Shown in pieces: positions 6,143 to 37,313 of a DNA stretch of 44,580 nt. The position numbers and the translations under genes are program-made. The stretch is from Candidatus Kapaibacterium sp. (GTDB lineage: Bacteria > Bacteroidota > Ignavibacteria > Kapaibacteriales > WFXC01), in the NCBI GenBank assembly GCA_027082775.1, contig JALWUI010000159.1:1-44580 (forward strand), written 5' to 3'. Below the pieces are notes generated by a model. It was not told where the DNA came from. It ran no database searches and saw only the letters and a list, made by a program, of their open reading frames with translations. Each line of letters begins with the position of its first letter. Position 1 is the first letter of the stretch.

Positions 6143-6625
6143 ATGATCCGCATTCAGCGCATCTTAGTTCCCATTGACTTCTCCGAACATTCGCAATACG
6201 CTCTGCAATATGCAGCGGAAATTGCTCAACAACTGGGTGCAAAGTTAACACTGCTTCACATTGTAGAACCTATCGCTTATCCAGCAGATTGGGGATTTTC
6301 ACAGGTCGGATTGGTAGATCTGGAAAAAGAGCTGATCGACACGGCAACCAGCGAGTTAGAAAAAATCACGCAGGAACTACGCGCCAAAGGCATACAGGTA
6401 GACTTCGAGGTGCACAGCGGGGCACGAGCATCGGACGAGATCGTGCAGTTTGCCAAGGAACACAATGTGGATATCATCAGCATTGGAACGCACGGCAGAA
6501 GCGGATTAGAACACTTTCTGTTTGGAAGCACTACCGAGCGTGTGCTGCGGAAAGCGCCGTGTCCGGTCTTAGCCGTTCGACTGCCGGAATACTTAAACAA
6601 AGAAAACGCTGGCGAATCGGAGTGA
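6143..6625 (+). CDS. Universal stress protein (Usp)
   Basis: ILVPIDFSEHS, IGTHGRSGLEHFLFGSTTERVLRKAPCPVL. Confidence 0.95.
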   Translation: MIRIQRILVPIDFSEHSQYALQYAAEIAQQLGAKLTLLHIVEPIAYPADWGFSQVGLVDLEKELIDTATSELEKITQELRAKGIQVDFEVHSGARASDEIVQFAKEHNVDIISIGTHGRSGLEHFLFGSTTERVLRKAPCPVLAVRLPEYLNKENAGESE

Positions 6626-6657
6626 GTCAAACAAAGCATTCCAGACAGGAGATGGCA

Positions 6658-7689
6658 ATGAAAGTTCGGAAGCTGGTAACGATCGAACGACACATTGCAG
6701 AAAATCAGGCACTGTCTCCAGAAGCCAGCGGGGAATTCTCCCGCCTGCTGCGTGATCTTACCTTAGCAATCCGGATCATCGCCCGAGAAGTTCGGCGCGC
6801 CGGGCTGGCGGATATCCTGGGAATCACCGAAGCCACGAACGTTTCCGGGGATGTCGTCCGCAAACTGGACGTCTTTGCTCACGACACGATCGTCCGCGCA
6901 ATGGACCACGGCGGTCATCTCTGCATTATGGCATCGGAAGAAGCGGAAGAGCTGATTCGCATCCCTGAGCAGTACGAACGCGGTAAGTATGTGCTCATTT
7001 TCGATCCGCTGGATGGATCCTCCAACATCGACGTGAACGTGACGATCGGCACCATTTTCTCTGTCTACCGGCGAGTCTCTGACAGCGGCGATGGCACGCT
7101 GGAAGATGTCCTGCAACCGGGGTACAAACAGGTTGCAGCAGGGTACGCCTGCTATGGAAGCAGCACGGTGTTGGTCTACACCACAGGCAACGGGGTGGAC
7201 ATTTTCACCTACGATCCCACCGTCGGTGAATTTTTCCTCACGCACGAAAAAGTCCAAATCCCGAAGCGGGGCAAGTATTACAGCATCAACGAAGGCAACG
7301 CCGCATATTGGTCCCCGCAACTTCAGCGATATGTGCAGTATCTGAAAACGCCGTCGGAAGACAAGCAGCGTCCCTACAAACTCCGCTATGTTGGAACGGC
7401 TGTCGCAGATGTTCACCGAACCTTGTTGTACGGCGGGATTTTTATGTATCCGGGTGATAAAAAGAGTCCAAAGGGTAAACTTCGCCTCATTTACGAAGCC
7501 AATCCAATTGCAATGCTGATCGAGCAGGCGGGAGGACGGGCGACGGACGGAGAACATCGCATCCTGGAGATCCAGCCGACAGAGGTGCATCAACGAACAC
7601 CCCTGTTCGTCGGCAGCCCGGAAGATGTGCTGGAAGCAGAAGCATTTCTGCGCGGTGAGCAACAACCCGTTGCGACCGTAGCCTCGTAG
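6658..7689 (+). CDS. fbp: Class 1 fructose-1,6-bisphosphatase
   Basis: SEE, FDPLDGSSNIDVN, RYVGTAVADVHRTL, GKLRLIYEANP. AGGAG RBS upstream. Confidence 0.96.
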   Translation: MKVRKLVTIERHIAENQALSPEASGEFSRLLRDLTLAIRIIAREVRRAGLADILGITEATNVSGDVVRKLDVFAHDTIVRAMDHGGHLCIMASEEAEELIRIPEQYERGKYVLIFDPLDGSSNIDVNVTIGTIFSVYRRVSDSGDGTLEDVLQPGYKQVAAGYACYGSSTVLVYTTGNGVDIFTYDPTVGEFFLTHEKVQIPKRGKYYSINEGNAAYWSPQLQRYVQYLKTPSEDKQRPYKLRYVGTAVADVHRTLLYGGIFMYPGDKKSPKGKLRLIYEANPIAMLIEQAGGRATDGEHRILEIQPTEVHQRTPLFVGSPEDVLEAEAFLRGEQQPVATVAS

Positions 7690-7707
7690 ATCAAAGCGGT
7701 GTGGAGA

Positions 7708-8454
7708 ATGCCAGACAGTCGAAAACATCGTGGCAAGCATCCCTCGGACGACAAATTGTTTGCGCCAGACCAGCACAGCACGCTGCGGAACGCCGTCTAT
7801 GATCTCTCGTACCTTCTGACCCGCGGCTTCAGCGAAACGGCTGCTCTGAAAACAGTCGGCGATCGTTACCGACTAACGCAGCGGCAACGGCTGGCGGTCC
7901 AGCGCGCCAGTTGTCCCCAGCAGGCATTGAATCAACGGCTGCATTCGCAACTGGATCTGGAGGATCTGGCGGGGCAAACCATCGCAATTGATGGGTACAA
8001 CCAGCTCATTGCTTTAGAAAGCGCGCTGGGCAATGCGTATCTGTTCATCGGGCGAGATGGCTGCTACCGGGACCTTGCCAGCTTACACGGTACGTATCGC
8101 AAAGTGGAAGAAACCATCCCTGCTTTGCAGCTTTTAGGCACAACCTTAAATCAACTTCAGATCCAGCGTGCCATTATCTACCTGGATGCTCCGGTATCCA
8201 ACAGCCGCCGCCTGCAATCGCTGATGATGGAGCTGGCAAAAGAAAACCAATGGAACTGGCAGGTAGAAGTCCAGTTGCAGCCCGATCCACTGCTGGCACG
8301 TGCGCCGTACCCAGTGATCACGACCGATAGCTGGATTCTGGATCGGTGCCATCAATGGGCAAATTTGTTCCCAACGGTGCTCCTGATGGCGCAGCTTTCG
8401 CCGCCCATTGTAGATCTGCAAATTCGACAGGTCTGCGCCGCTGAACCATTTTAA
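7708..8454 (+). CDS. DUF434-family protein with PIN/NYN-like acidic motifs
   Basis: DLSYLLTRGF...VGDRYRL, IDGYN, GRDGCYRDLAS, YLDAPVSNS, VITTDSWI. Family recalled from motifs, not searched. Confidence 0.75.
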   Translation: MPDSRKHRGKHPSDDKLFAPDQHSTLRNAVYDLSYLLTRGFSETAALKTVGDRYRLTQRQRLAVQRASCPQQALNQRLHSQLDLEDLAGQTIAIDGYNQLIALESALGNAYLFIGRDGCYRDLASLHGTYRKVEETIPALQLLGTTLNQLQIQRAIIYLDAPVSNSRRLQSLMMELAKENQWNWQVEVQLQPDPLLARAPYPVITTDSWILDRCHQWANLFPTVLLMAQLSPPIVDLQIRQVCAAEPF

Positions 8455-8461
8455 ATTTGCA

Positions 8462-9208
8462 ATGTCTCCACAGCTTCAGCAACGGCTGGAATCTATCCGC
8501 ACCAATACAACTGCCGGGAGCCGACAGTTGGTACTTTTTGCCCTCGATGCACTGGCAGAATGCCGGTTTTCTTCTGAAGCTCTTTCCCATTTTCTGACCC
8601 AACTCCGGTGGATCCGTCCTGCAATGGCAGCATTTCGCACGATCAGTCGTTTCCTCTCCGATCAACTCCAGCACATCTCCTGTCCAACTGCTGTCGAGAA
8701 AACCAGAGCGCTCATACAACGCAGTTCCCGTGAAACGATCCAGACCGCTTTACAGCAGCTTCCGCATCACGGCACCGTTGCCACCATCAGTTACAGCTCC
8801 CTCATTGAACAAATTCTGGTCGAAGGAATCCACGAAGGAAAACAGTGGAACATCTACTGCTTCCGTTCCGGCACTCCTGCTTATGGCGAATTTTTCCAGC
8901 AACGACTCCATCGGGCTGGCATTCCCGCCACCGTACTTCCAGATGCTGTGCCATCGCACCCCATCGATTTTGTTCTGATCGGTGCTGACACAGTCTCCCC
9001 GTCCTATGGACTTATCAACGGACACCCCAGCTATTCGCTCTGCGCTCTACTCTTCTACCAGATTCCCATTTATTGCTGCGCCGAGTCTTTTAAATATGAC
9101 GCATCGCTTGTACTGGAACCCGGCTTCGACTTTCTTCCTGCTTCCTTCGGTATTCACCAAATTTCCGACTCCGTCTGGATCGATTCTTTAGCAGAACATC
9201 GCTCATAA
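8462..9208 (+). CDS. eIF-2B alpha/beta/delta-like (IF-2B family) protein
   Basis: RPAMA, TISYSSLI, VLIGADTV, IYCCAESFK motifs of the eIF2B / ribose-bisphosphate isomerase fold. Confidence 0.7.
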   Translation: MSPQLQQRLESIRTNTTAGSRQLVLFALDALAECRFSSEALSHFLTQLRWIRPAMAAFRTISRFLSDQLQHISCPTAVEKTRALIQRSSRETIQTALQQLPHHGTVATISYSSLIEQILVEGIHEGKQWNIYCFRSGTPAYGEFFQQRLHRAGIPATVLPDAVPSHPIDFVLIGADTVSPSYGLINGHPSYSLCALLFYQIPIYCCAESFKYDASLVLEPGFDFLPASFGIHQISDSVWIDSLAEHRS

Positions 9209-9359
9209 AGAGCCGTGTTTCCGGACATCGGGCTCCATTCAGCTCTTTTCTTAACATAACGGACAGCCAACTCGCTCCGACCTCCCCTTAAAAGATTTTT
9301 CCTGCAAATTCTTCCTTAGTTTTCCAGGTCAGCGGTTATGTTAAACAAACCTCTTCCCG

Positions 9360-9582
9360 TTTTCCACAATCATCCACAAATCGAGTGTTTCTGAACTGTG
9401 GAAATCCGTGGAAAACTTACCACTTTGTCCACACTTTTACTGTGGAAAACTTGTTTATCCACAACGCTGTGGATAACTCCGCACTTTTCCACATCATTTT
9501 CCACATACGACCAGTGTTCGCTCTCCCCTTGATTCCGTAGGAACGAGCACTTCTTCCATCCCGGCTTTTCCACTTTTCCACA
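9360..9582. other. Candidate oriC: DnaA-box cluster
   Basis: Perfect boxes TTATCCACA 9455-9463 and TGTGGATAA 9468-9476. Near matches start at 9360, 9370, 9397, 9407, 9425, 9441, 9485, 9497, 9566 and 9574, all within a 500-bp intergenic region. Confidence 0.85.
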
Positions 9583-9708
9583 TCTCCTGAAACTACAACC
9601 AGAGAAGAGAAAGCTCAATTCCTGTAACGGAAAATGAAGAGCAACCGCTTCTCTCACGGGTTTTCCCTATATTCGCAACATTGTAGAACAAAGTGGAGCA
9701 AACAGAAA

Positions 9709-10338
9709 ATGAAACGGTTTAGCCTAATTCTGCTTCTCAGCCTTGGAGTGACCATTGCACATGCGCAGTTATTCTATCCGCTTGGTGTCGGAATTGGTCT
9801 AACAGGACAGATGGGAATCAACGCTGGCGATATTCCGCAGGGAGAAAAAACAGAGCTTGCAATTGCGCCTCTACCGAATTTCTTCGCTTCTGCGTGGTAC
9901 ATTGTTTCGCAGAAGGAAGACTTCGGATTTGCGCTGGATGTGGGATACACCACGAACACGTTCATAATGAAGCCGTACCAGAATGTCACGGACCAAAACC
10001 GCTTCCAGTATGTTCTCAGCTACCTGAGCGTTCATCCGTACATCCAGTTCAAAATGTTTAACCTGGGCGTTGGGCTGGGATTCCCGCTAAGCGGCAAAAG
10101 AGAGAACGTTGCCGGAACAATCTCACAAGAACTATCAAACCTTGCAACGGCGATAGAACTCCGGTTCAAACTCTCGGTTCCCGTGTACCGGGATGCAACG
10201 GGTAAGGTGAGTTTCTGGATTACCGGAGCGTACCAGCTTAATGGGATTTATGCATCGGACATTCCCAACAATCCCAAAGTTGCCTCCGCAGGCATTGGGT
10301 TCAGCTATCACTTTCACTTCCGCCTGTGGGAATACTAA
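9709..10338 (+). CDS. Secreted putative outer-membrane beta-barrel protein
   Basis: Signal peptide ending AHA-Q, amphipathic beta-strands, aromatic-rich C-terminus (GIGFSYHF). Confidence 0.65.
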   Translation: MKRFSLILLLSLGVTIAHAQLFYPLGVGIGLTGQMGINAGDIPQGEKTELAIAPLPNFFASAWYIVSQKEDFGFALDVGYTTNTFIMKPYQNVTDQNRFQYVLSYLSVHPYIQFKMFNLGVGLGFPLSGKRENVAGTISQELSNLATAIELRFKLSVPVYRDATGKVSFWITGAYQLNGIYASDIPNNPKVASAGIGFSYHFHFRLWEY

Positions 10339-10349
10339 GTCCGGTGGTT

Positions 10350-12062
10350 ATGCACCGGCAGGTGTGGAACGTCCTTTTTGCGGGCATTCTCGGATTTTTC
10401 AGCATATTTTCCCTTTTCCGATGCGCGCATCCTCTACCGCCACCGGGAGGACCGCGGGATACCATTCCGCCGACTGTTTTGCAGACAATTCCTACCAGTG
10501 GAACCGTTCGATGGGAACGTCCACAGATTTCCATCGTTTTCAGTGAGGAAATCGCCGTTCAATCTCCCGCCAGGTACATTACCATTTTTCCCCCCACGAA
10601 TTTTCGTGCTGAGTGGGTTGAGGATGACGAGTTGGAAATTCATCTGGATTCGCTCCGGAGCAATCAGACCTATGTTGTTACTGTGAGTCCGGCGTTTCGG
10701 GATGTTGAAGGCAATACGCTGGAAAAGGCGGTAACGCTGGTTTTTTCGACTGGTGACACGATCAGTCAATACGGCGTTGTGGGCAGGATATGGGGGAGAC
10801 ACCGTGGGAGTAAAACCATCGTGTTGTTAACGCAGGAAGGCACGAAGTGGCAGGATTCATTGTGGTATCAGCAGCCGGACTACTGGCTGGAGGTGGGAGC
10901 AGACGGAACGTTCCAGTTTCCTGCTTTGCTTCCGCGGCGATACCGTATCGCTGCTTTTGAAGATCGGAACGGCAATGGTCGGTACGATCGTGGATGGGAG
11001 GCAGCGACGGTTGGATGGAGAGAAGTGGTGCTGGGACCGGTGGTGACTGATACTATTGAGCTGTGGATGTCACCCGTTCCAGACCGGGAGCCGCCGAAGC
11101 TCATTGGAGCAACGCCGCTGACTGCTCGATTGCTCCGGCTGCGGTTTTCTGAACCACTCGATACCGCTTCGATTCAACCGGCAGCATTCTGGTGCCGGGA
11201 TACCGCAACAGGACGGATGCTCAAACCATCGGGAGCAGGGCTGGAGCCGGGAAAACAAACAACTGTTTTGCTGGCATTTGCTACCCCGCTGGCATCCAGC
11301 ATCTGGGATGTTGGCGCCAGCACCGTAGCAGACACCGCAGGAAATGTGCTCGACACCCTCCAGAATCAGGTGCAGTTTCGAATGCCCATACTCGCCGATA
11401 CGCTTGTACCACGCATCGCTGAACTTCCCCTCAAGGGCGACAGTTTGCAGCTTCTGCTCCCGTTTTTTCACTGGATCTTTGCTTTTTCTGTTCCAATGGA
11501 TACGGGGGCAACGGCAGCGGCAATTTCACTTCATCGATTGGACAGTGGGCAGACGGTACCATTGCAGAAACGATGGAAAAGCCAGACCCACATTGAACTT
11601 CAGCCGGTGGATACCCTTTTACCACAGCAGTGGTATGAGCTGCGCATTGATACGGTCGCCATCGCTGTTGGAGGGGTATCGTTGCCCTCTCCGGTTCGCA
11701 TCCGTTTCCGCACGCCCGATCTTCGGGACTTTGGAGAATTCGTCGGGGAGATTCAGGATGCGCATCCCGGAGGACCGTATATCCTGATCGTTCAGGGAAT
11801 CGGTTACGGTATGCAGTATCGGCATACGCTTCAGCAGCCGGGCACGTGGCGTATTCCATCGGTGGTGCCCGATCGGTATCAACTGTGGTGCTTTGAAGAT
11901 GCCAATCGCAATGGACGGTTCGATGTTGGACGCATCGATCCGTATCAACCGTCAGAGCGCTTTACGGGGTGGCAAACGGTCGTGCGGGTAGCACCACGGT
12001 GGACTACCGAAGGAATTCAGATCCGGATGCCGGGACATCCCGCCGCTTCTCGATCAGAATAA
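10350..12062 (+). CDS. Lipoprotein with repeated bacterial Ig-like (Big_5) domains
   Basis: Lipoprotein Cys followed by CAHPLPPPGGPRDTIPP, IVFSE/LRFSEP repeats, DRNGNGRYD and DANRNGRFD Ca-loop-like motifs. Confidence 0.85.
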   Translation: MHRQVWNVLFAGILGFFSIFSLFRCAHPLPPPGGPRDTIPPTVLQTIPTSGTVRWERPQISIVFSEEIAVQSPARYITIFPPTNFRAEWVEDDELEIHLDSLRSNQTYVVTVSPAFRDVEGNTLEKAVTLVFSTGDTISQYGVVGRIWGRHRGSKTIVLLTQEGTKWQDSLWYQQPDYWLEVGADGTFQFPALLPRRYRIAAFEDRNGNGRYDRGWEAATVGWREVVLGPVVTDTIELWMSPVPDREPPKLIGATPLTARLLRLRFSEPLDTASIQPAAFWCRDTATGRMLKPSGAGLEPGKQTTVLLAFATPLASSIWDVGASTVADTAGNVLDTLQNQVQFRMPILADTLVPRIAELPLKGDSLQLLLPFFHWIFAFSVPMDTGATAAAISLHRLDSGQTVPLQKRWKSQTHIELQPVDTLLPQQWYELRIDTVAIAVGGVSLPSPVRIRFRTPDLRDFGEFVGEIQDAHPGGPYILIVQGIGYGMQYRHTLQQPGTWRIPSVVPDRYQLWCFEDANRNGRFDVGRIDPYQPSERFTGWQTVVRVAPRWTTEGIQIRMPGHPAASRSE

Positions 12063-12609
12063 GGTACGGAGAACGGTCTGAACTGTTGAGTCGGCGATAT
12101 TGCACTGCTATAGCGATATCGCGGGGAAAGCGACGACTCCAGTGGATGAGTGCTTCGGATTCCTCTGTCCCTGCAGGATGACCGGGATACACCACAATGC
12201 TGATGCGTCCCCCGACGTTCAGCAGGTGGAAAGCCGATCGCACCGCCGCCATCGTGGTTTCAACATCGGTTGTGATACTGCGGTCTCCGCCGGGAAGATA
12301 ACCCAGGTTGAACATTACCGCACGGATGTGTTTGTGCAGAGAAGCGGGAATATGATCCAGAAGTTTGCTATGGCAAGCGCAGATAAGAGTGCAGCGATGG
12401 TTGAGGTGGAATTCCTGCAAAAGCCTGCGGGTCCGATCTAAGGCGATCTCCTGAATGTCAAAAGCGTACACGTGTCCCGTTTCACCCACGTGCTCTGCTA
12501 AGAAAATCGTGTCTTTGCCGTTGCCAGCCGTTGCATCAATGGCGATGTCGCCTTCGTTAAGGACCTGACCGATAAACAGTTGTGCAATGTAAGTGACCGT
12601 TTCCAGCAT
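12004..12609 (-). CDS. mnmM: YtqB/MnmM-family SAM-dependent methyltransferase
   Basis: DATAGNGKDT, VYAFDIQ, VMFNLGYLPGGD and YPGHPAGTEE are YtqB-family signatures. Confidence 0.85.
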   Translation of the reverse strand: MLETVTYIAQLFIGQVLNEGDIAIDATAGNGKDTIFLAEHVGETGHVYAFDIQEIALDRTRRLLQEFHLNHRCTLICACHSKLLDHIPASLHKHIRAVMFNLGYLPGGDRSITTDVETTMAAVRSAFHLLNVGGRISIVVYPGHPAGTEESEALIHWSRRFPRDIAIAVQYRRLNSSDRSPYLILIEKRRDVPASGSEFLR

Positions 12610-12610
12610 T

Positions 12611-13666
12611 TTATCCGAACCGATTCAGATGGACTTCCGAGGGAATGGAATCTTTACCGGATAAAGCCTCAGCCAGCACGGACGCTAAGAAAGGAGCGTA
12701 CCCCACGCCTTTGGTTCCCAGCCCTGTAAAGAGCCAGAGTTGGGGATACTGAGGATGGGGACCAAGAGCTGGCAGGTGGTCGGGAAAAGTGATGCGAACA
12801 CCTGAATGGTGCGCCAGAATCGTTACTGGAACAGTGGCAAAGTTCTGGAGCGCAGAGCGGAGTTGACGGTAGCCTTCAGCCGTTGGCAGAGCAGTTGCAT
12901 CGTCCCATCGGTAGGTGGCACCAAACCGGAATATGTGATTCCCCAGGGGTGCCCAGTGGACACCCCGATTGAAAATCAAATTCTCTGGTAGCGATTCAGC
13001 AGCAAAGGTCAGCGATTCGCCTTTGGCAAACTGGAACGGCAACAGGGAGTTCCAGAAATGAGAATGGAGGATAGAGTCGCCGGGACAAAAAACGGCGAAC
13101 CGTGCTCGCACCTGACGATTCCAGCGAACGCTCCGGTGATCTAATTCGAGTTGAGCGTCGGTGTAGCGACTTTCGATCAGAGCATCGTGGTGGAACAGAA
13201 ATTGCCGCCAGGAGTGTAGAAATTTCTCTGTCTGGAGAAGAAAACTCTGGCGGGTTAGGAATCCACCCAGCGGAGCAGAAACCCATTGGGCAACTTCTTC
13301 GGGAGAAAGAAAGCGATCGATGAACTCCGCAAGAACCGTTTCCAGCTTCCGCTGCTCCCACCGCTTCTTCTGTTCTTCATCTCTGAAGAAACGAGCAATG
13401 GGCAGCGGAAAGAGAAATTGCATATTGAAGAACCGCTCAATCTCCGTAACTGCTTCAATGAGAGCGTCCCGGCAATCGGGAAAGTTCCAGAAGGGCGTAA
13501 AGCGGTATCCGGCGATGGGATTGAAGGTCCCGGTGCCGGTCGCAGAAGCCGGAAGGATTTGAGGGGAGTCCACAACCAGCACGTCCACGCCGCGACGAAT
13601 CAACCAGAAGCTGAGAAAAGACCCTGCAAGCCCCTGTCCAATAATGAGGACGTCCACCGAGCGCAT
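12611..13666 (-). CDS. FAD-dependent oxidoreductase (DAO family; resembles the MnmC oxidase domain)
   Basis: IIGQGLAG, KGE, FGATY, SGVR...DHLPALG, TGLGTKGVGYAP. Confidence 0.85.
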   Translation of the reverse strand: MRSVDVLIIGQGLAGSFLSFWLIRRGVDVLVVDSPQILPASATGTGTFNPIAGYRFTPFWNFPDCRDALIEAVTEIERFFNMQFLFPLPIARFFRDEEQKKRWEQRKLETVLAEFIDRFLSPEEVAQWVSAPLGGFLTRQSFLLQTEKFLHSWRQFLFHHDALIESRYTDAQLELDHRSVRWNRQVRARFAVFCPGDSILHSHFWNSLLPFQFAKGESLTFAAESLPENLIFNRGVHWAPLGNHIFRFGATYRWDDATALPTAEGYRQLRSALQNFATVPVTILAHHSGVRITFPDHLPALGPHPQYPQLWLFTGLGTKGVGYAPFLASVLAEALSGKDSIPSEVHLNRFG

Positions 13667-13697: not shown

Positions 13698-13724
13698 CAG
13701 AAGCGGCGCCGGGCGCCGCTTCTG
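13698..13724 (-). terminator. Hairpin, likely terminator after the bacilliredoxin gene
   Basis: CAGAAGCGGCGCC-G-GGCGCCGCTTCTG (13-bp perfect arms); followed on the minus strand by TGTTTT. Confidence 0.6.
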
Positions 13725-13760: not shown

Positions 13761-14201
13761 CTACGCATTGGACGGTTCTTCTTTTCTGCAAAAACGTTCA
13801 AAAGCTTCAACCAGTGTATCGGCAATTCCTTCCGGATCGAGCATTTCAATGTGATGGCGGTGCATCATAAAGACTAGCTTTCCATCTTTCAGCAGGGCAA
13901 ACGAAGGAGAAGATGGCGGCTGATTGGTAAAGTACTCCCGTGCCCGCGCCGTTGCTTCCAGATCCTGTCCGGCAAAGACGGTAACCAGCCGGTCCGGTAA
14001 TACCGTCGCTTTTTGAAGAGCTAAAGCAACGCCGGGTCGGGCAGCGGCAGCGGTGCATCCGCATACGGAGTTCACGACAACAAACGTTGTGCCCGGCAGC
14101 GGCAGAACCTGATCGACCTCCTCTGGTGTTCGGAGTTCCTGAAATCCGATCCGGGTCAGTTCTTCTCGCATTGGCTGGACTAAAAGTTCATCGTATGGCA
14201 T
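13761..14201 (-). CDS. Bacilliredoxin, BrxA/BrxB (YphP/YqiW) family
   Basis: VVNSVCGC motif, TVFAGQDLEATARARE, PPSSPSFAL. Confidence 0.92.
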   Translation of the reverse strand: MPYDELLVQPMREELTRIGFQELRTPEEVDQVLPLPGTTFVVVNSVCGCTAAAARPGVALALQKATVLPDRLVTVFAGQDLEATARAREYFTNQPPSSPSFALLKDGKLVFMMHRHHIEMLDPEGIADTLVEAFERFCRKEEPSNA

Positions 14202-24488: not shown

Positions 24489-25733
24489 TTATTCATATCG
24501 AAGGGCTTCCACCGGATCGAGTCGAGCCGCTTTCCACGCCGGATAAGATCCAAAGATCACACCTAACAGCGTACAGATGAGCACGCTACCAATGATCCAG
24601 TTCAGTGGCAGGACCAGTTGGAATCCTAAGGAAGAGCCCACAAGGGCAGCGGCAATGCCGCCCAGCACAATGCCGGCAATGCCACCCAGTTGAGAGAGAG
24701 TTAATGCTTCCAGCACGAACTGGGTCAGGATGTGACGAACCTTTGCCCCCACGGCTTTACGGAGACCAATTTCCCGTGTCCGTTCCTGCACGGCTACCAG
24801 CATAATGTTCATAATCCCAATGCCAGCCGCCAGCAGGGCAATGATCCCGGTTCCAAGTCCGAAAATCTGGAGGTATTGCATAAAGCTGTCAAACTGCGAG
24901 CCGATCGCTTCGTTTGTTTGCACTTCAAAGTTGTTTTCTTCCCACGGTTTCAAATTTCGCAAGCCGCGCAAAATTGCGATTGCCTGGTCGATCATTTCCT
25001 GTAAGCTCTCCGCAGAGGGAGCTTCCACGTAGAGTGCGAATGAGCGCCATCGTGCCGGAACATTCTGGCTAAAGTAGCGGAGGAAAATGGTTGCGGGGAC
25101 AAAGACGACTTTATCGAGACTTTGTCCCATCACATTCCCACGCGCTTTCAGAACGCCGACCACTTGCAACCGTCTTCCCCGGATGAAAATGTGCTGTCCC
25201 AGCGGGGAAGAAGCGGGAAAGAGCGATCGGACTACATCGGCGCCGACCACAGCAATTGGGCGGTTCAGCAGCAGATCTTCATCCGTGATGGGACGTCCTT
25301 CTTCAATATCCAGCCGGTTTGCAAGGAAAAAGCCGCCATCCACGCCGTAGAGGGTGAAATCATTGTCTGTGGTCTGTTCTTCATACTTGATCCGAACCCC
25401 TGAAATATCGGCAGCGAAGCCAACGGCGCGGGCATACGGTTGCATTCGTTCTTTGAATTTCATCGCTTCTTGAAGGGTAATGGGCGGGCGATTCCGGTAT
25501 CGCCGCCACGCTCGATGCCCAACGACAAAGGAAGGACGGCGGTCGATCCGAAAAGTGTTTTGTCCAAGTTCCAGGATCTGAGAGGATACCGTGTGCTCCA
25601 GGGAGGTCACTAAGGTTCCGGACCCCATCAGGGCAAAAATACCGATGGCAATGCTGAGGAGTGTCAGGAACGCTCGCAATTTGTTCGAGCGGATGGAAAA
25701 AAGTGCCTGCAAAATGCTTTCTCGTAAAACCAT
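24489..25733 (-). CDS. MacB/FtsX-type ABC transporter permease
   Basis: [27 protein letters not shown]; ends [17 protein letters not shown]. Confidence 0.93.
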   Translation of the reverse strand: MVLRESILQALFSIRSNKLRAFLTLLSIAIGIFALMGSGTLVTSLEHTVSSQILELGQNTFRIDRRPSFVVGHRAWRRYRNRPPITLQEAMKFKERMQPYARAVGFAADISGVRIKYEEQTTDNDFTLYGVDGGFFLANRLDIEEGRPITDEDLLLNRPIAVVGADVVRSLFPASSPLGQHIFIRGRRLQVVGVLKARGNVMGQSLDKVVFVPATIFLRYFSQNVPARWRSFALYVEAPSAESLQEMIDQAIAILRGLRNLKPWEENNFEVQTNEAIGSQFDSFMQYLQIFGLGTGIIALLAAGIGIMNIMLVAVQERTREIGLRKAVGAKVRHILTQFVLEALTLSQLGGIAGIVLGGIAAALVGSSLGFQLVLPLNWIIGSVLICTLLGVIFGSYPAWKAARLDPVEALRYE

Positions 25734-25764
25734 CGATTGTGTTCCCTGTGACTTTCCAGACCGG

Positions 25765-27030
25765 TTATTCGTACCGCAATGCTTCCACCGGATCGAGCCG
25801 GGCAGCGCGAAGTGCTGGGGCGAAGCCTGCCAGAACGCCGACCAGCACCGCGACCAGAAGCGCAATCCCCATCAAATGGGGCGGAATGATGGATGCTGTA
25901 AAGCCCAGATCGCCGGGGAAAAGGAGAAATTTTGCTCCGGCGATCGCGCCCTGAGACAAAAGCAGAGCAATGACAGCACCGGCAGTACTCAGCAGTGCTG
26001 CTTCGATCAGAAATTGCAGTAAGATTGCTCGCCGCTTTGCCCCTACGGCTTTACGCAGCCCAATTTCTCGCGTCCGTTCCACCACCGAAACGAACATAAT
26101 GTTCATAATGCCGATGATACCTACCAGGAAAGATAGACCGGTCATTCCAATCCCGATACCCCAGATCGCAATGCGGATGGTTCGCACCTGTTGTTCGAAA
26201 GCATCGATGGAGTTGATCGAGAAATTGTCTGGTTCCCATGGAGCCAGATTGCGAACTTTGCGCATCACCATTCGCGCTTCTTCCGTAACCTCTGGCAGCA
26301 ACGATTGCGACGGGGCTTTTACCACCAGCGTGTAATTGGAGAAGTTGGTACTGTGTAACAGTTGGAACACTCGAAAGGGGATATAGACCGCATTGTCCCC
26401 CCAGTCGCTGATCAGCGTTCCCCGCTTTTTGAGAATTCCGATGACCCGGAATTTTTTGCCTCTGTAGAAAATCGTTTGTCCCAGAGGATTCTGGTTCGGA
26501 AAAAGCTCTTGCCACACATTGTATCCCAGAACGGCTACGTAGCTGGCAGTCAGGTCTTCAATGGGGGCGAGAAACCGTCCTGCTTCGATGCTGTTTGCCA
26601 CTTCCCAGTCGTTGTCACTGGTAGTGCCGATAATCCCAATGCCACTGATGGAGTTTTCTGCTGATCGAACGGTCTGTCCCCAGGCGTTACCCCGCGGATA
26701 TGCTCGCTCTGCCAGGGTCAACTGCGCAATGGCAGCTCGAATCTGCCGAATGGTAATCGGCGGGCGCTTGCGCGCCTCCCGCCACGGCGTTCGTCCCGTC
26801 CAGTCGAATTTGTGAATGTAAATGACTTCGTAGCCAAGACTGCTAATCGTTCGTTCCCACGCAGAATCCAGTCCATCCAGAAACCAGCCCATCAGGACGA
26901 CAAAGGTGACACCGATAACAACGCCCAGCGTGGTGAGCAGGGAGCGAACCCGGTTGGCGGCAATGGCAGCGACAGCAATACGGATGCTTTCGCCAAATTC
27001 TGCCAGAATGTTCAGTGTGCGTTGCATCAT
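25765..27030 (-). CDS. MacB/FtsX-type ABC transporter permease (paralog)
   Basis: [34 protein letters not shown]; ends [11 protein letters not shown]. Confidence 0.93.
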
Positions 27031-27728
27031 ACCGGTATGCTGCTGGTTTTGCTTTCTTCTTTCTGAATTTGACCATCCAGAATGTGGATAATGCGGTTAG
27101 CGTGTTGGGCAACGTGTGGTTCGTGGGTGACGAGAATGATGGTATTTCCCTGACGCCACAGTTCATCGAACAGCGCTAAGATTTCAGCGCCTGTACGACT
27201 ATCCAGGTTGCCGGTAGGTTCGTCGGCTAAAAGAAGCGAGGGATTGTTGATTAACGCGCGGGCAATAGCAACTCGCTGCCGTTGTCCCCCCGATAGCTCA
27301 TTGGGTTTGTGAAAGAGCCGATCTCCTAATCCCACTTTTTCCAGCATAGCCACAGCGCGCTCGTAACGTTCGTCGGCTGGAACTCCTGCATAGATAAGGG
27401 GAAGTTCGACATTGCGCACCGCCGTATAGCGCGGTAGCAGGTGGAAGGTCTGGAAGACAAAGCCGATTTTTTTGTTCCGGATTTCTGCCAGTTCATTGTC
27501 GTCCAGATCGCTGACGTCCTCGCCTTCCAGAAAGTATCGTCCCGAGGTAGGGGTATCCAGACAGCCGATGATGTTCATCAGGGTAGATTTACCGGAGCCT
27601 GATGGACCCATAATCGCGACGTATTCGTTGGGTTCAATCGAAAGTGTAACGCCGCGCAGCGCCCGGACCACCTCTTCTCCCATCTGGTATTCCCGGACGA
27701 TATTTTCCAGGTGAATGAGCGTGTTCAT
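27027..27728 (-). CDS. ABC transporter ATP-binding protein (MacB/LolD-like)
   Basis: [33 protein letters not shown]. Confidence 0.96.
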
Positions 27729-29053
27729 TGTTCACTCTTTCGTTCGTTCCGCTTTGCTTGTTGCCATCGCTTTCTGGACTTGCGTCCGGATTTGTTCTGA
27801 ATAATCAATTTGCTCCCGTCTTTGAGTCGCCGGGCAATGGCGGTGAAACTGCCCGTTACCACCTCTGTTCCTTCCTCCAGTCCCTCCACGATTTCAATGT
27901 AGTTCCCATCGCTGATGCCAGTAACCACCCGAACCATTTTCGCATAACCGTTGTCATTAACAAAGACGACCGTCGGCGGATGCTGCTGTTGCGGTTTTTT
28001 GTTTCCCGGACCACCTTTTTTCCCTTGCCACATCGGTCGTTGGGACCGGCGCACCGTAACCGCCTGGAGTGGCACTGCCAGCACGTTTTCTTTCTTTTCA
28101 GTTTGAATTTCCGCCGTGCAGGTCATACCGGGACGCATCCGGGGATCAGTTTCCAGCAGACGAATTTCTACCTTGAACAGCACCAGATCTTCGTTGCTTC
28201 CGCCGGGACCCTGCGAAATGGGGGCGTTGCCAACGTGCAATACCACCCCCCGGAACTTCTGGTTGGACAATGCGTCCAGTTCCACGAAGGCGGTATCGCC
28301 TGGCTCAATAAGCACAACGTCGTTTTCATCAACCTCCACTTCGGCATTGATCGTGTGGAGATCGGCGATCCGCATAATTTCCGTTCCCTGCATTTGAGCG
28401 GTTCCCACCACTTTTTCCCCTTTTTCAACGGGAAGAGCAATCACTACTCCGTCGATAGGGGAATAGATCTGGGTGCGCTGGAGACTCAGTTCTGCTTGCT
28501 TGAGCGATGCCCGAGCACGTTCATACTGCTTCAAACTGGCCTGGTACCGGGCTTGTGCCTGCTGGAAACGCGCCTTTGCCTGATCCAGCTCTTCCTGCGA
28601 GGCAAATTCTTTTTTGTAAAGCTGGAGTGTGCGGTCCAGCATTGCCTTAGCGTTTTCCAGCTCGGCTTTCGCAACTTCAATGTCCGATTTTGCTGCTTCT
28701 GCTGCTGCCCGAAGTTGTTCCACCTGGGTTTCCACAATGTCAGGTTTGATCCGAACTAACAGTTGCCCTTTGCGGACGGTGTCTCCCTCTTCAACTCCCA
28801 GAAAAATAATTTCGCCGCTGGTTTCCGAAGAAATTTTGACTTCCGTCTCCGGCTTAATGGTTCCAGTCACCGTCACCGTCTGAATGATGGTACGGCGCTG
28901 CACCGGTTCGACGGTAACCGGGGTTCCCTCTTCCCGGTGGGCGGAGACGTAGAAGATAAAGCTGAGAATAAGGAGTATGATGACACTGAGTCCAATCCAG
29001 AGTTGCCGCTTTTTCCGACGTTTGCGTACGCGTTTGTTTTCTGCTGTTGCCAT
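27725..29053 (-). CDS. Efflux periplasmic adaptor subunit (MacA-like)
   Basis: N-terminal TM helix, [13 protein letters not shown], coiled coil, [15 protein letters not shown]. Confidence 0.93.
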
Positions 29054-29082
29054 CGTTCGCTCGCTTTATTGGGACTTCGTTT

Positions 29083-30435
29083 TTACGGTTCAGTTCCGGT
29101 GAGCATCTTCAGTTGGTATTGGGCTTTTAGATAGTTGAACAGAGCAGTCAGGTAGTTCACTTTTGCGGATGTGAATTGCGAGTTTGCCTGTGCGTATTCT
29201 GCTAAGGAAATTTTACCCACATCCAGGCGCTCCTGAGCACTGGCATAATTCAGGCGAGCAGCATCTAAGGCAAGGGTTGCTGCCTGAAGTTCTCGTTCGC
29301 TGGCGTCCAGTTGCAGGAATGCCTGTTCAATATCCGCAGCGATTTGTTGCTCGATCTGTCGCAGTTCCAGTTCTCGCTGCATCCGCTGAACATTCGCTGA
29401 TTGAATCTGTTCATTGGTGCGGAAGTTATCGAAGATCGGTACGCGCAAAGATAGTCCAACGAAGGTGCGTCCTAAGCGGTCGAAATCTCGAAGCTCGCTG
29501 TTTGCCCACGACCAGGAAAGCGCAGCAGAAAGGCTGGGGAAGTAACCGCTGCGCGCTACGGTCAGCGATGCGTTGGCAATTGCCAGTTGCTTTTGAGCTG
29601 CAAGGTAGTCCGGACGACGGCTCAATGCTTGCTGATAGACCGTCTGGAAAGTTCCTATGCGCTGACGGAAATCCTGCATCATCGCTGCAGTTACCGTATC
29701 TGGCAAGCCGGCGGATGAAAATTCCACCGGTAAAGTGGGAGAAAGACCGATGAGACTGAGCAGCTTTGCTTTCGCAAGGGTGAGCTGGTTTTTGGCTTGA
29801 ACCAGTGCTAATTGTTTCTGCGCTACCTGCGCCTGTTGCTGATACAAAGCCGGTTTGGCAATGCGACCGGCTTCGTATTGCGCCTCCAGTTTGCGAAGCT
29901 GCGTTTCCGCTGTTTCCAAGTCCGCTTTGCGAAGATCGATGAGTCGGTAGGATTTCTGGACTTCGAGAAACTGGTCATAGACCTGCTGAAAAACGCGCCG
30001 GCGAGTGTCAGCCGCTTGTAACTCCGTCGCCTGAAGCTGGTCCTGTGCCTGCGCAAATTGGGCTTCGCGAGCAAAGCCGTCGAAGAGCGGAAGAGAAGCG
30101 TTGACACTGAGCGAATAGGAATTGGCAGGTGAGCGTGGAACCGGGATCAATTGCCCGCCGATATTTACGAATTGCTGTTGCTGTTGATCCAGGCGGCGGG
30201 AATACCCGGCGCTGAGAGAAAGACCGGGAAGATACCGCCCGAAAGCGGCGGTGAGACGGGCACCGGCGCCCAGTAATTGGGCTTCTGCCCGCTGGATGTC
30301 CAGATTGTTTTCTCGCGCTAATTGGAGGCATTCTTGCAGGGTTAAAACCTTTGGACCTTTACCCTGAATCTGTGCGCTGCTACCGGCAACGCTCAGCAGC
30401 ATTCCTGCGACGATCGCAATAATTCTCTGAATCAT
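29083..30435 (-). CDS. TolC-family outer-membrane efflux protein
   Basis: Signal peptide, LTLQECLQLARENN, duplicated OEP repeats (YLPGLSLS / YFPSLSA). Confidence 0.92.
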   Translation of the reverse strand: MIQRIIAIVAGMLLSVAGSSAQIQGKGPKVLTLQECLQLARENNLDIQRAEAQLLGAGARLTAAFGRYLPGLSLSAGYSRRLDQQQQQFVNIGGQLIPVPRSPANSYSLSVNASLPLFDGFAREAQFAQAQDQLQATELQAADTRRRVFQQVYDQFLEVQKSYRLIDLRKADLETAETQLRKLEAQYEAGRIAKPALYQQQAQVAQKQLALVQAKNQLTLAKAKLLSLIGLSPTLPVEFSSAGLPDTVTAAMMQDFRQRIGTFQTVYQQALSRRPDYLAAQKQLAIANASLTVARSGYFPSLSAALSWSWANSELRDFDRLGRTFVGLSLRVPIFDNFRTNEQIQSANVQRMQRELELRQIEQQIAADIEQAFLQLDASERELQAATLALDAARLNYASAQERLDVGKISLAEYAQANSQFTSAKVNYLTALFNYLKAQYQLKMLTGTEP

Positions 30436-33781: not shown

Positions 33782-35440
33782 ATGATGAAGAGGATTTTTT
33801 GCTTTATTTCAGTGCTTGGCATTTGGATGGGAGTGCTTCGAGCACAGGTACTGGACATTGCCGATGCGCGGCAGCAGCCGCCCGGCAGTGTGGTAACCGT
33901 CAGTGGGGTTGTGACCGTCGCGCAGCAATTTGGGAATCCCGCTTTTATCCAGGATCGGACTGCGGGCATTGCTGTTTATGACTTTGATTTTATCCAGCAG
34001 GTGCAGATTGGAGATTCCGTGGTAGTGCGAGGCACGCTGTCGGAGTTTGGGCAGCAGAATGGGCAGCCGGGAAGTGGATTGTTGGAGTTAACCGATGTGA
34101 CCCTGATGCAGAAAGTGTCCGGAGCGCGGATTGATACGCTTGCAGTATCGCTCGCGGCCATTGATGAAACGATCGAAGGACGATTGGTGCGCATTGATTC
34201 GGTCTTCTGGACGCTGTTGCGGGACGATTTTTTCCCTGCGGAATCGCGCAATTATGGGATTTTTGATCCAACGGGAGCGGGCGAAATTCGGGTGGATAAC
34301 AATACGGAGCTGGGAGGAAAACGGATTCCCCACACACCCTTCGATTTGATTGGCGTAGTGTCGCAGTATCGAGGGCAGTATCAGATTATGCCACGATTTG
34401 TAACCGATTTGCAGCCGCTTCCGCCGCGGCAGGCAGTGCCTGATTCCCAGCGGTTGACACTGGTGACCTGGAATTTGGAATGGTTTGGAGATCCCAATCG
34501 AGAACCATCGGATGATGCTGCCCAGTTTGCGGGTGTCTATGCGCTGATTGACAGTGTGAATGCGGATATTTACCTGCTGCAGGAAGTTGCAAACCCGACG
34601 GTATTTCAGCAGTTGGCGGATTCGCTGGCGCGCTATGACGGGTATCTGGCGCCGTACGATCAGGAGCTGCGCACGGGGTATCTGGTAAAGCGGTCGGAAA
34701 TTACAGTGCTGGACACGAATCTGCTTTTTACCGCGGCACCATCTGACGCCTGGGCGTGGGGACGGTATCCGTTCCATCTGGTGTTCCGCTGGCGGGGAGT
34801 CCGGCTGCACGTGCTCAATCTCCATATGAAGTCGGGAACCAATCTGGAGGATCAGCAGTTGCGGTGGCGGGATGCGATGATTCTGTACAATGGACTCTCC
34901 AGCCGGTGGAGCGATTCGTTGCTCATTGTTGGCGGCGACTGGAACGATGATTTCGACGAAAGTATTGTGCCGGGAGTACCATCGCCGTACGAAGCATTCG
35001 TTGCTGATTCAGGGAATTTCATCGTGCCGGATTACTGGTTGAGTGTGCGGGGCGTTGGCACCCATCGAGGAGGCTCGTTTCTGGATCATTTTGTGATGAT
35101 GGGAGTGATGCGGACTTTGCCAATTCAGTGGCAGGCAGGAGTTGTGCTGCCATCTTCTGTGGAACGGAACTTTGCAACGGTTTCGGATCATCTCCCTTTG
35201 CAACTGGAGCTGGTGTGGCAACCATCGACGGTTATCCCGGAGTGGGAAGCGGCGAAAATCCGGGTTCTCCATAAACAGCTTCTGCTGGAGCGTCCAGCAA
35301 CGATCCGGATTTATACGTTATGGGGACAGCACATTGGCACGTGGCGGCGGGTTTATCGGGTCGATCTCTCATTTTTGCCCCCGCAACCGGTCGTGTATGT
35401 GCTCAATGGGCGTCAGCGGGGGATTCTGATGGTACGGTAG
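33782..35440 (+). CDS. Secreted EEP (endonuclease/exonuclease/phosphatase) protein with N-terminal OB-folds
   Basis: Signal peptide LRA-Q; OB-fold VTVSGVVT...FIQDRTAGI; EEP motifs TWNLEWF, LQEV, NLHMKS, GGDWND, LDHF, SDHLP. TATTTTTG promoter element at 33738. Confidence 0.87.
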   Translation: MMKRIFCFISVLGIWMGVLRAQVLDIADARQQPPGSVVTVSGVVTVAQQFGNPAFIQDRTAGIAVYDFDFIQQVQIGDSVVVRGTLSEFGQQNGQPGSGLLELTDVTLMQKVSGARIDTLAVSLAAIDETIEGRLVRIDSVFWTLLRDDFFPAESRNYGIFDPTGAGEIRVDNNTELGGKRIPHTPFDLIGVVSQYRGQYQIMPRFVTDLQPLPPRQAVPDSQRLTLVTWNLEWFGDPNREPSDDAAQFAGVYALIDSVNADIYLLQEVANPTVFQQLADSLARYDGYLAPYDQELRTGYLVKRSEITVLDTNLLFTAAPSDAWAWGRYPFHLVFRWRGVRLHVLNLHMKSGTNLEDQQLRWRDAMILYNGLSSRWSDSLLIVGGDWNDDFDESIVPGVPSPYEAFVADSGNFIVPDYWLSVRGVGTHRGGSFLDHFVMMGVMRTLPIQWQAGVVLPSSVERNFATVSDHLPLQLELVWQPSTVIPEWEAAKIRVLHKQLLLERPATIRIYTLWGQHIGTWRRVYRVDLSFLPPQPVVYVLNGRQRGILMVR

Positions 35441-37313
35441 ATGTTCCACGTGGAACATTGCGGAGGTAGAGTGCCAGGATGGAAAGATCCGCAGCCGTCA
35501 CGCCAGCAATGCGCGAAGCCTGTCCCAGCGAATGTGGTCGGATCTTTGCCAGCTTTTCCCGGGCTTCGGTCGAGAGCGAAGGAATAGCGGCATAGTCGAT
35601 GTCCGGCGGAATCCGTTTTTCCTCCATCGCCCGCAGCCGCTCCACTTCCCGACGCTGCCGCTCGATGTACCCCGCATATTTGATTTCCAGTTCTACCTGT
35701 TCCCGAACGGCTGCTGGAAGGGAGGTGAGATCCCAGCCAAGCGCTGTCAACAGTTCCTCCAGTGTTACTTTGCCCCGCCGCAACAGCTTTTCCAGTGACG
35801 TGGCTTCCGTAATGGGAGCTTCGCCAATAGCGGTCAGATAGGCGTTGATAGCGTCGGGCGTTGCTTTCGTTGTTTGAAGCTGCTGGTGGAGTTGCGCGAT
35901 GGCTGCTTCTTTGGCAAGCAGTTGTTCGTACAATTCTGGTTCAATCAATCCTAATTCGTAGCCATAACGCAGCAGGCGTCGGTCTGCATTGTCCTGCCGC
36001 AGCAGCAGTCGATATTCTGCCCGCGAAGTGAACATTCGGTACGGTTCGTCGACGTCTTTGTTGATGAGATCGTCGATCAAAACGCCAATGTAGGCTTCCG
36101 ATCGCTGGAGTTTGAATTCGCCCTCACCACGTACCAGCAGTGCCGCATTGATTCCGGCAATGAGTCCCTGGGCAGCGGCTTCTTCATATCCCGACGTTCC
36201 GTTGATCTGTCCAGCGAAAAACAGCCCCCGGATTGCTTTGGTTTCCAGGGTAAAGTGGAGCTGGTAGGGGTAGAAAAAGTCGTACTCGACGGCGTAGCCG
36301 TAGCGGAGAATGCGGGCGTTTTCCATACCGGGAATGGTGCGCAGCGCCCGCTCCTGAATATCCCGCGGTAAGCTGGTGGAGAATCCGTTGACATACACCG
36401 AGTTTGTGCCCAAGCCTTCGGGTTCGAGCACGATCCGATGCGATTCTTTGTCTGCGAATCGGTACACTTTATCTTCGACCGAAGGGCAGTACCGCGGACC
36501 TCGCCCCGTGATCTTGCCCGTGAACATCGGGGAGCGATCGAAGCCTTCCGCGATAATTTCGTGTGTTTCTGCGGTCGTGCGGGTCATATAACAGAGAATC
36601 TTGTTTTCGACGGATTGGGTACGCAAAGAAAATGGCTGGGGAGGCTCATCCCCGGGATGGATTTCCATCTTGCGGAGATCGAGTGTTTCCAGAGCAACCC
36701 GTGGTGGCGTACCGGTTTTGAGCCGTCCGCGCTGGAGACCGTAACTTTCCAGCAGATCCGAGATTTTGGTGGCACTCTTTTCACCAAAGCGTCCTCCGGT
36801 TGTCGCTTCCAGTCCGGTGTACATTACTCCGTTGAGGAAGGTTCCGCCACACAGCACGACGGCTGTGGTTTTGAGCTGTTCGCGGTCGTCCAGGAGCACT
36901 CCAACGACCCGATCGTTGCGGACCAGAATTTCCGTCACCGTACCCTCAATCAGGGTTAAGCTGGGCAGGGATTGGAGCAGTTGTCGAGCGAACAGCGGAT
37001 AGAGAGCTTTATCATTTTGCGACCGGGGCGACCACACGGCAGGACCGCGGGAGCGGTTCAGGAGTTTGAACTGAATGCCGCTCCGGTCTGCTAAGACACC
37101 CATCACGCCGCCCAGGGCATCAATTTCTTTCACCAGATGCCCTTTTGCTGTTCCGCCAACGGCAGGATTACACGAAAGCCGTCCAATGGTGTCAAGGGAC
37201 ATCGTCACCAGCGCAACACGGCATCCCATCCGGGCAGCCGCCGCTGCTGCTTCGATGCCAGCGTGCCCACCGCCGATGACAATGACATCGTATGTATCCG
37301 ATCGATTGCGCAT
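35403..37313 (-). CDS. mnmG: tRNA U34 carboxymethylaminomethylation enzyme MnmG (GidA)
   Basis: GGGHAGIEAA, SCNPAVGG, RLKTGTPPR, GPRYCPSVEDK, AGQINGTSGYEEAAAQG. Confidence 0.98.
   Translation of the reverse strand: MRNRSDTYDVIVIGGGHAGIEAAAAAARMGCRVALVTMSLDTIGRLSCNPAVGGTAKGHLVKEIDALGGVMGVLADRSGIQFKLLNRSRGPAVWSPRSQNDKALYPLFARQLLQSLPSLTLIEGTVTEILVRNDRVVGVLLDDREQLKTTAVVLCGGTFLNGVMYTGLEATTGGRFGEKSATKISDLLESYGLQRGRLKTGTPPRVALETLDLRKMEIHPGDEPPQPFSLRTQSVENKILCYMTRTTAETHEIIAEGFDRSPMFTGKITGRGPRYCPSVEDKVYRFADKESHRIVLEPEGLGTNSVYVNGFSTSLPRDIQERALRTIPGMENARILRYGYAVEYDFFYPYQLHFTLETKAIRGLFFAGQINGTSGYEEAAAQGLIAGINAALLVRGEGEFKLQRSEAYIGVLIDDLINKDVDEPYRMFTSRAEYRLLLRQDNADRRLLRYGYELGLIEPELYEQLLAKEAAIAQLHQQLQTTKATPDAINAYLTAIGEAPITEATSLEKLLRRGKVTLEELLTALGWDLTSLPAAVREQVELEIKYAGYIERQRREVERLRAMEEKRIPPDIDYAAIPSLSTEAREKLAKIRPHSLGQASRIAGVTAADLSILALYLRNVPRGTSTVPSESPADAH
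35442..35457. promoter_or_regulatory. parS site (inside the mnmG 3' end)
   Basis: Perfect palindrome TGTTCCACGTGGAACA matching the TGTTNCACGTGNAACA consensus. Confidence 0.88.

Follow-up and report, generated by a model that had tools for sequence, protein, structure and literature searches.

The window analyzed here, a 44,580-nt stretch of contig JALWUI010000159.1 (positions 1–44,580 of the forward strand; assembly GCA_027082775.1) from Candidatus Kapaibacterium sp. of the phylum Bacteroidota, carries on its minus strand two close-packed genes that probably act in the maturation of the tRNA wobble uridine 5-methylaminomethyl-2-thiouridine (mnm5s2U34), a modification that adjusts how Glu, Lys, and Gln codons are decoded. 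The upstream gene (nt. 12611–13666) encodes a 351-a.a. oxidoreductase of the DAO family that depends on flavin adenine dinucleotide (FAD), delimited from its open reading frame (ORF), Pfam and NCBIfam matches, a structure model, and trees, and the downstream gene, mnmM (nt. 12004–12609), encodes a 201-a.a. tRNA nm5(s2)U34 methyltransferase of the YtqB family, delimited from its ORF, NCBIfam model NF053511, and alignment to the solved structure 8h0s. From sequence comparisons, we consider it probable that the oxidase works like MnmC1, the oxidase domain of Escherichia coli MnmC, in converting the 5-carboxymethylaminomethyl form of the base (cmnm5(s2)U34) to the 5-aminomethyl form (nm5(s2)U34), which MnmM would then methylate. 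A stand-alone cmnm5U oxidase had been proposed in an earlier note made from the DNA alone, and the proposal finds support: the two genes occur fused, their adjacency is conserved, the oxidase co-occurs with nm5U methylases, and this genome lacks both alternative enzymes and ThiG.

The substrate of the oxidase step, cmnm5U34, is made by MnmEG. In the proposed scheme, the FAD oxidase would oxidize the N-carboxymethyl C–N bond of cmnm5(s2)U34, with hydrolysis of the imine yielding nm5(s2)U34 and glyoxylate, and O2 would probably re-oxidize the reduced flavin, as it does for glycine oxidase and the MnmC1 of E. coli. MnmM would then use S-adenosylmethionine (SAM) to convert nm5(s2)U34 to mnm5(s2)U34, such that the oxidase and mnmM would form a bicistronic unit completing mnm5s2U34 in the tRNAs read by MnmEG and MnmA. 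The oxidase is placed here in an MnmC1-like but separate clade of flavoenzymes resembling glycine oxidase, termed DAO-X. Depending on the lineage, its members are free-standing, are encoded directly upstream of mnmM or directly downstream of mnmC2, or are fused to MnmM. The clade may derive from glycine oxidases by a recruitment independent of the proteobacterial MnmC1.

At the junction of the two genes (nt. 12607–12613), the minus strand reads ...TTCGGATAAaATGCTG..., in which the oxidase stop codon, a single base, and the mnmM start codon follow one another (TAA-a-ATG), precisely the 1-nt spacing between a DAO-family gene and a YtqB/MnmM gene that the earlier note had reported, with exact coordinates. 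The mnmM gene lies in a different frame from the oxidase gene, and the 1-nt spacing is kept in two other genomes of the genus (loci L089 and L090: oxidase at nt. 1498–2553, MnmM at nt. 891–1496), which shows the split to be genuine rather than a fusion gene broken by a sequencing frameshift. A strong terminator-like hairpin (nt. 13698–13724, minus strand; 12 pairs, 9 of them G-C, then a T run; detected by consensus scan only) lies behind the upstream bacilliredoxin gene, so the oxidase and mnmM look like a bicistronic transcription unit of their own. A sigma-70 promoter scan upstream of the pair gave no match, a scan that says little for this phylum. We also noted that mnmM and a convergent 578-a.a. 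ORF with Big_5 Ig-like domains (nt. 10326–12062) share 59 nt at their 3′ ends (nt. 12004–12062), and that the last ~12 residues of MnmM extend past the family profile.

The methylation step rests on the assignment of the second gene as MnmM, for which the curated cut-off is exceeded. The protein scores 208.5 bits on the NCBIfam model NF053511 (equivalog cut-off 135), with residues 5–189 aligned to profile positions 3–183 of 183, 149 bits on Pfam PF06962, and 149 bits to the YtqB/MnmM structure 8h0s over residues 13–192. Its D-A-T-x-G-N-G-x-D motif, to which we presume a role in SAM binding, is well conserved, with D25, A26, T27, G29, G31, and D33 invariant in 13 sequences of the order.

The fusion of the two proteins into a single polypeptide provides evidence for the pairing. 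Among 74 long relatives of the window MnmM retrieved from a large protein collection, 64 are fusions of an N-terminal oxidase and a C-terminal MnmM, as determined by BLASTP with both window proteins, a domain order equal to the gene order at the window locus. The oxidase part of these fusions aligns over approximately the whole window oxidase (23–39% identity, E-values down to 4e-53), and the fusions arose at least twice on the tree. The remaining 10 long homologues comprise six fusions of a radical-SAM (MnmL-type) domain to MnmM, according to precomputed Pfam domains, and four proteins with other or no extra domains. A search for longer relatives starting from the oxidase (616–2000 a.a.) returned one uninformative match; the fusions, at ~550 a.a., were found via MnmM.

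Conserved linkage was seen within the order as well. Using 41 genomes, the window's own included, with the oxidase called at E ≤ 1e-10 and MnmM over its cut-off, we found the oxidase in 32, MnmM in 27, and both in 26. In 18 of these 26 genomes, spanning 6 of 11 families, the oxidase gene directly precedes mnmM on the same strand (~17–214 nt between the matches), and the linkage on which the earlier note had staked its proposal is thus conserved; one further genome has 1.9 kb between the two genes, a stretch that includes an opposite-strand gene. Recurrence of the pairing both as adjacency in six families and as fusions exceeds what chance would give. In two genomes of one other family, it is an MnmC2 (PF05430) gene that sits directly upstream of the DAO-X gene, with a 2-nt gap in one case and an 8-nt overlap in the other; these loci (L120:2504–4200, genome G117; L121:1653–3411, genome G185) form an unfused copy of the domain order in E. 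coli MnmC.

Across the phylum, an even set of 201 genomes was searched with a family profile for the oxidase (E ≤ 1e-25) and with PF05430 for MnmC2. The oxidase profile matched in 95 genomes, MnmM was present in 19, and MnmC2 in 77, the two methylases never occurring together, and 96 genomes carried neither oxidase nor methylase. A methylase accompanies the oxidase in 86 of the 95 oxidase-positive genomes (18 with MnmM, 68 with MnmC2). Apart from the two genomes with adjacent genes, the 66 genomes holding both MnmC2 and the oxidase have them unlinked. On balance, we regard the chances as about even that DAO-X is the phylum's general cmnm5-to-nm5 enzyme, interchangeably partnered with MnmM or MnmC2, in which case most "MnmC2-only" members would be on the glycine route with a cryptic oxidase.

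In the organism's own genome (99.2% complete), no MnmC1, MnmC2, or MnmL scored over cut-off, nor did ThiG (PF05690) or ThiH. MnmA is present in this genome, alongside MnmE and MnmG in the window. The earlier note had also pointed to mnmE and mnmG in the same window, and both are indeed there over their cut-offs: mnmG at nt. 35403–37313 (minus strand; TIGR00136, 831 bits, cut-off 525) and mnmE at nt. 37890–39263 (minus strand; NF003661, 388 bits, cut-off 380; TIGR00450, 372 bits, cut-off 253). They are, however, 22–25 kb from the oxidase/mnmM pair with many unrelated genes between, so they show only that the substrate-making enzymes exist and provide no linkage evidence. A gene for a 182-a.a. 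GNAT acetyltransferase (nt. 37332–37880) lies between the two on the same strand. The genome holds three COX1-family genes, and aerobic respiration, which is plausible for this organism, would be in keeping with a flavin oxidase that, like MnmC1, depends on O2. The genome encodes just one other comparable DAO protein (G000 C58), which was considered as a rival candidate and ruled out, being an L-2-hydroxyglutarate oxidase at 501 bits.

The oxidase itself displays a clear DAO domain (PF01266, 93.4 bits), and its top NCBIfam matches are MnmC_Cterm and ThiO, although it belongs to neither curated family, with the ThiO model TIGR02352 reaching 46.7 bits (cut-off 250.8). Six relatives scored 45–89 bits on the MnmC1 model and 31–102 bits on the ThiO model, with no consistent preference. 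The AlphaFold model of the oxidase is of high confidence (predicted local distance difference test 94, predicted template modelling score 0.92), and a predicted complex of the oxidase and MnmM scored 0.00 and 0.00 (mark 0.32), which speaks neither way. A profile comparison (hhalign) of the oxidase and E. coli MnmC1 gave a probability of 97% over 321 columns. The oxidase has an FAD-binding GQGLAG motif at residues 10–15, R291, and GLGTKGVGYAP at residues 315–325. The last of these had been likened in the earlier note to the end of the MnmC oxidase domain, and it does align with ALGSRGLCSAP of E. coli MnmC, the full pairing being GVRCATRDHLPMVG...ALGSRGLCSAP in MnmC and GVRITFPDHLPALG...GLGTKGVGYAP in the window oxidase. 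R291 and K319 align with MnmC R567 and R618, two residues that we take to be important for catalysis. All 75 oxidase-like rows have an LG[ST][KR]G-type motif near the C-terminus, as does E. coli MnmC1, and none of 10 ThiO rows has it, whereas GH[YF]R[HN]G occurs in all 10 ThiO rows and in none of the 75, the window oxidase included; the Arg of the GVR motif is invariant.

Phylogenetic analysis placed the oxidase in a large clade. Two trees were built: a quick maximum-likelihood tree of 81 rows (tree 1), leaving out L089 and L090 (near-identical and from the same genus) and L095 (ORF cut by a contig end), and a tree of 68 rows (tree 2), for which 19 rows of tree 1 were dropped for speed and six were added. 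The DAO-X clade, including the window oxidase, received Shimodaira–Hasegawa-like approximate likelihood ratio test (SH-aLRT) support of 97 in tree 1 (63 rows) and 99 in tree 2 (49 rows). In tree 1, every order-level homologue falls in it, as do 14 stand-alone proteins from Bacteroidia, the two MnmC2-adjacent proteins, and each of the 20 sampled fusions, and it excludes ThiO. The phylum's true ThiO proteins (315–376 bits on TIGR02352) form a separate clade with support of 95–99, and a grouping of the window oxidase with ThiO, an outcome at odds with the earlier proposal, was thus not found. From these sequence data, the large clade that contains the oxidase is separate from both curated MnmC1 and ThiO; the DAO-X group counts 3,265 clusters at 50% identity (E ≤ 1e-30) in a collection of 1.84 billion.

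A second oxidase clade was also observed, in which the MnmC1-like oxidase genes of families f24, f45, and f47 (105–153 bits on the family profile) either adjoin a true thiO gene divergently or lie no more than 4 kb from one (L123/L128 in genome G043, L129, L130, L131, L134, and L124; also L139–L143). Families f28, f32, f36, and f34 join this clade by BLAST and in tree 2, and the genomes with second-clade oxidases all carry MnmM or MnmC2 elsewhere.

Several observations weigh against an MnmC1-like tRNA oxidase, beginning with the similarity data. The oxidase scored 65.6 bits on the MnmC1 model TIGR03197 (MnmC_Cterm), short of its 174.2 cut-off. Foldseek with the oxidase model returned ThiO first (1ng3, TM-score 0.85), followed by CmiS2, other glycine oxidases, sarcosine oxidases, and an iminodiacetate oxidase, with the MnmC structures 3awi in 20th and 3pvc in 22nd place (TM-scores 0.77–0.79), and a profile of 28 family members gave 79 bits to solved ThiO chains and 57.5 bits to MnmC. 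The deep branching is also equivocal: the one canonical MnmC1 in either tree is that of E. coli, which sits on a long branch, all non-ThiO rows were grouped in tree 1 with support of just 18, and a tree constrained to unite DAO-X with ThiO gained 23.8 log-likelihood units and was not rejected by the approximately unbiased (AU) test (p-AU 0.80). Tree 2, the better sampled of the two, set MnmC1, the second clade, and DAO-X apart from ThiO with support of 87, which was not starred. Thus, the sequences at hand do not fix how DAO-X, the second clade, the MnmC1 of E. coli, and ThiO branch relative to one another, and the oxidase may or may not be orthologous to MnmC1. The ThiO-first ranking does not contradict an MnmC1-like role: according to Kim and Almo (2013; PMC3648344), the structure closest to MnmC1 is likewise B. 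subtilis glycine oxidase, and MnmC showed no significant activity on free glycine or sarcosine.

The genomic evidence has its own counterpoints. In 7 of the 26 order genomes with both genes, the oxidase and mnmM are unlinked, being on different contigs or far apart. MnmM was found within 5 kb of none of 80 loci of Bacteroidia homologues (Cytophagales, Chitinophagales, and others; 26–35% identity), and the conserved neighbors there, clustered from 78 of the loci (L060 and L070 were excluded, having no full ORF), are not tRNA-related: a BamA-like protein, YicC, a metallo-β-lactamase (MBL) hydrolase, and a CDP-alcohol transferase. Among the 201 phylum genomes, nine carry the oxidase and neither MnmM nor MnmC2 (G004, G014, G041, G075, G098, G102, G135, G173, and G192), and 10 carry a methylase without the oxidase, of which five have the alternative enzyme MnmL (TIGR01212 over cut-off). 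None of 18 proteins neighboring the oxidase in genomes without MnmM or MnmC2 is a methyltransferase that might act as a third methylase, and no methyltransferase adjoins the oxidase in G004, G014, or two further genomes of the same family (G023 and G037); the oxidase-only genomes could have either nm5(s2)U as an end product or a third methylase. Moreover, the kinship of the genomes, which are not independent, makes the association between oxidase and methylases look stronger than it is in the Fisher p-value of a 2 × 2 table, and the 95 profile matches mix the two oxidase clades, the second of which contains a 33-genome family with a sole representative in the tree (G171).

One alternative keeps the oxidase on tRNA together with MnmM and gives it another reaction, either trimming some other side chain installed by MnmEG or demethylating mnm5U as an "eraser". 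The nine oxidase-only genomes, the lack of demonstrable orthology to MnmC1, and the sarcosine-oxidase-type folds among the structural neighbors are in its favor; however, the invariant Arg and the glycine-oxidase-like pocket suit a carboxymethyl substrate, fusion or adjacency with two unrelated nm5U methylases points to a shared nm5U intermediate, and a demethylase fused to a methylase would presumably run a futile cycle, and we find such a reaction unlikely. A non-tRNA role as a small-molecule amine oxidase (acting on glycine, sarcosine, an iminodiacetate-like compound, or a D-amino acid), with the proximity to mnmM owing to a shared small-molecule pathway or genome packing, deserves little credence. 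It would account for the best solved relatives being free-substrate oxidases (ThiO, CmiS2, IdaA, and sarcosine oxidases), for the oxidase falling below every curated cut-off, and for the Bacteroidia homologues lacking tRNA-related neighbors, but it fits poorly with 64 of the 74 long MnmM homologues being fusions of at least two origins, with an adjacency that recurs in six families and extends to the unrelated methylase MnmC2, with the near confinement of the oxidase to genomes with an nm5U methylase (86 of 95), and with an MnmM that passes its equivalog model.

That the oxidase is simply ThiO, the glycine oxidase of thiamin thiazole synthesis, is very improbable, even with many homologues annotated as "glycine oxidase" by one source, ThiO as the top structural and Protein Data Bank (PDB)-profile match, and an AU test that does not reject a sister relation. 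Against it stand a score well under the ThiO cut-off and the missing ThiG and ThiH, which leave no partner for the product in a genome that is 99% complete. The phylum's true ThiO proteins also sit in their own clade and have GHYRHG where the family of the window oxidase has LG[ST][KR]G, and true ThiO co-exists with an oxidase of this kind within the same genomes. We therefore retain the stand-alone cmnm5(s2)U34 oxidase as the preferred reading.

Compared with known systems, the locus most closely resembles the MnmC1/MnmM fusions, which likewise combine an oxidase, placed first, with MnmM, placed second, and whose oxidase halves, in 20 sampled cases, share a clade with the window oxidase, although the window has separate genes one base apart. 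E. coli MnmC1 (3awi and 3ps9) shares the proposed reaction, the FAD-binding GxGxxG, and the GVR...D-H-L-P...G and LG[ST][KR]G..AP motifs, and it is likewise coupled to an nm5U methylase (for the window family, by adjacency here and in 17 more genomes, fusion in 64 proteins, and MnmC2 adjacency in two genomes); the window oxidase differs in its low identity (~21%), in not being fused to MnmC2, and in lacking an insert of ~23 residues that precedes the LGSRG motif. The "split MnmC" of the earlier note is no more than a figure of speech, as the methylase is MnmM rather than MnmC2 and the oxidase falls under the MnmC1 cut-off. ThiO (B. subtilis 1ng3/1ryi; TIGR02352) provides the nearest solved fold, a common Arg in G-x-R-P, and glycine-moiety chemistry, whereas the window oxidase lies in a separate clade, has GHYRHG replaced, occurs without ThiG, and has MnmM rather than thiS/thiG as its context. 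The radical-SAM enzyme MnmL (YtqA/YhcC) of Bacillota performs the same step upstream of MnmM and is also adjacent or fused to it, but belongs to an unrelated, oxygen-independent enzyme class with no member over cut-off in the window's genome. IdaA (6pxs) and CmiS2 (6j38), among the top fold and profile matches, are flavin oxidases of the glycine or N-carboxymethyl-amine type, but they act on small molecules or carrier-bound substrates and are not linked to tRNA genes.

Other features of the window lie outside the pair. Directly upstream of it is a BrxA/BrxB-family bacilliredoxin gene (nt. 13761–14201, minus strand; 193 bits, cut-off 100), which hints at bacillithiol use by the organism. The cumulative GC skew has its minimum at ~8000–10000 and rises through the rest of the window, and, with mnmG and mnmE nearby, this minimum could be the sign of a replication origin region. 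On the plus strand, a 466-a.a. ORF (nt. 6289–7689) matches class 1 fructose-bisphosphatase from residue 128 onward, its real start probably being downstream of the first start codon, and a DUF434/DUF5616 protein gene is followed 8 nt later by that of a short IF-2B-family protein (50.6 bits; nt. 7699–9208). On the minus strand, a MacB-like split permease pair is encoded along with an ABC ATPase, a membrane-fusion protein, and a TolC-like outer-membrane protein in an efflux operon (nt. 24489–30435).

The combination of MnmC1 and MnmM has already been predicted in print from fused proteins. Jaroch et al. (bioRxiv 10.1101/2023.12.21.572861) state that MnmC1/MnmM fusions from InterPro "suggest" that the combination converts cmnm5s2U, with predictions that "await experimental validation"; these fusions are likely those retrieved here. 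Their MnmC1 census is restricted to COG4121, with three classes (216 + 232 + 520) summing to 968 genomes, so free-standing oxidases were seemingly not counted. A July 2026 review (PMC13602947) and a 2026 YhcC preprint mention, in their accessible parts, only MnmC, MnmL/YhcC, MnmM, and MnmC2; the accessible part of the preprint also names a "standalone MnmC1" as a category, describes MnmC1 as O2-dependent, and questions the MnmEG ammonium route in vivo for E. coli. Our literature search found neither an assayed stand-alone oxidase with MnmM nor a link of B. subtilis YurR, whose sequence lies outside our trees, to tRNA or mnm5s2U, and a tblastn search of a plasmid collection for named ThiO or MnmC sequences gave one weak match. 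What is new here is the large, distinct oxidase clade, its linkage to MnmM across six families, and the presence of such an oxidase in most of the sampled "MnmC2-only" genomes.

These findings bear on a widespread gap, as the cmnm5-to-nm5 enzyme is without assignment in more than half of the bacteria surveyed by Jaroch et al., where 520 of 968 genomes have neither MnmC1 nor MnmC2. At the window locus, the predicted oxidase and MnmM route is represented by a clean, unfused gene pair that is easily cloned, with an oxidase from a family annotated only as "FAD-dependent oxidoreductase" or "glycine oxidase". Were the activity shown, thousands of proteins could be named, and the family would provide an oxygen-dependent counterpart to MnmL outside Pseudomonadota. 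Within the phylum sample, these oxidases are found with MnmC2 as often as with MnmM, calling into question the inference that MnmC2 alone means the ammonium route. If the oxidase does serve MnmC2 in this way, most "MnmC2-only" bacteria of the phylum would not be Aquifex-like users of the MnmEG ammonium route, contrary to COG4121-restricted censuses, and the view that MnmC2-only genomes rely on this route would be revised.

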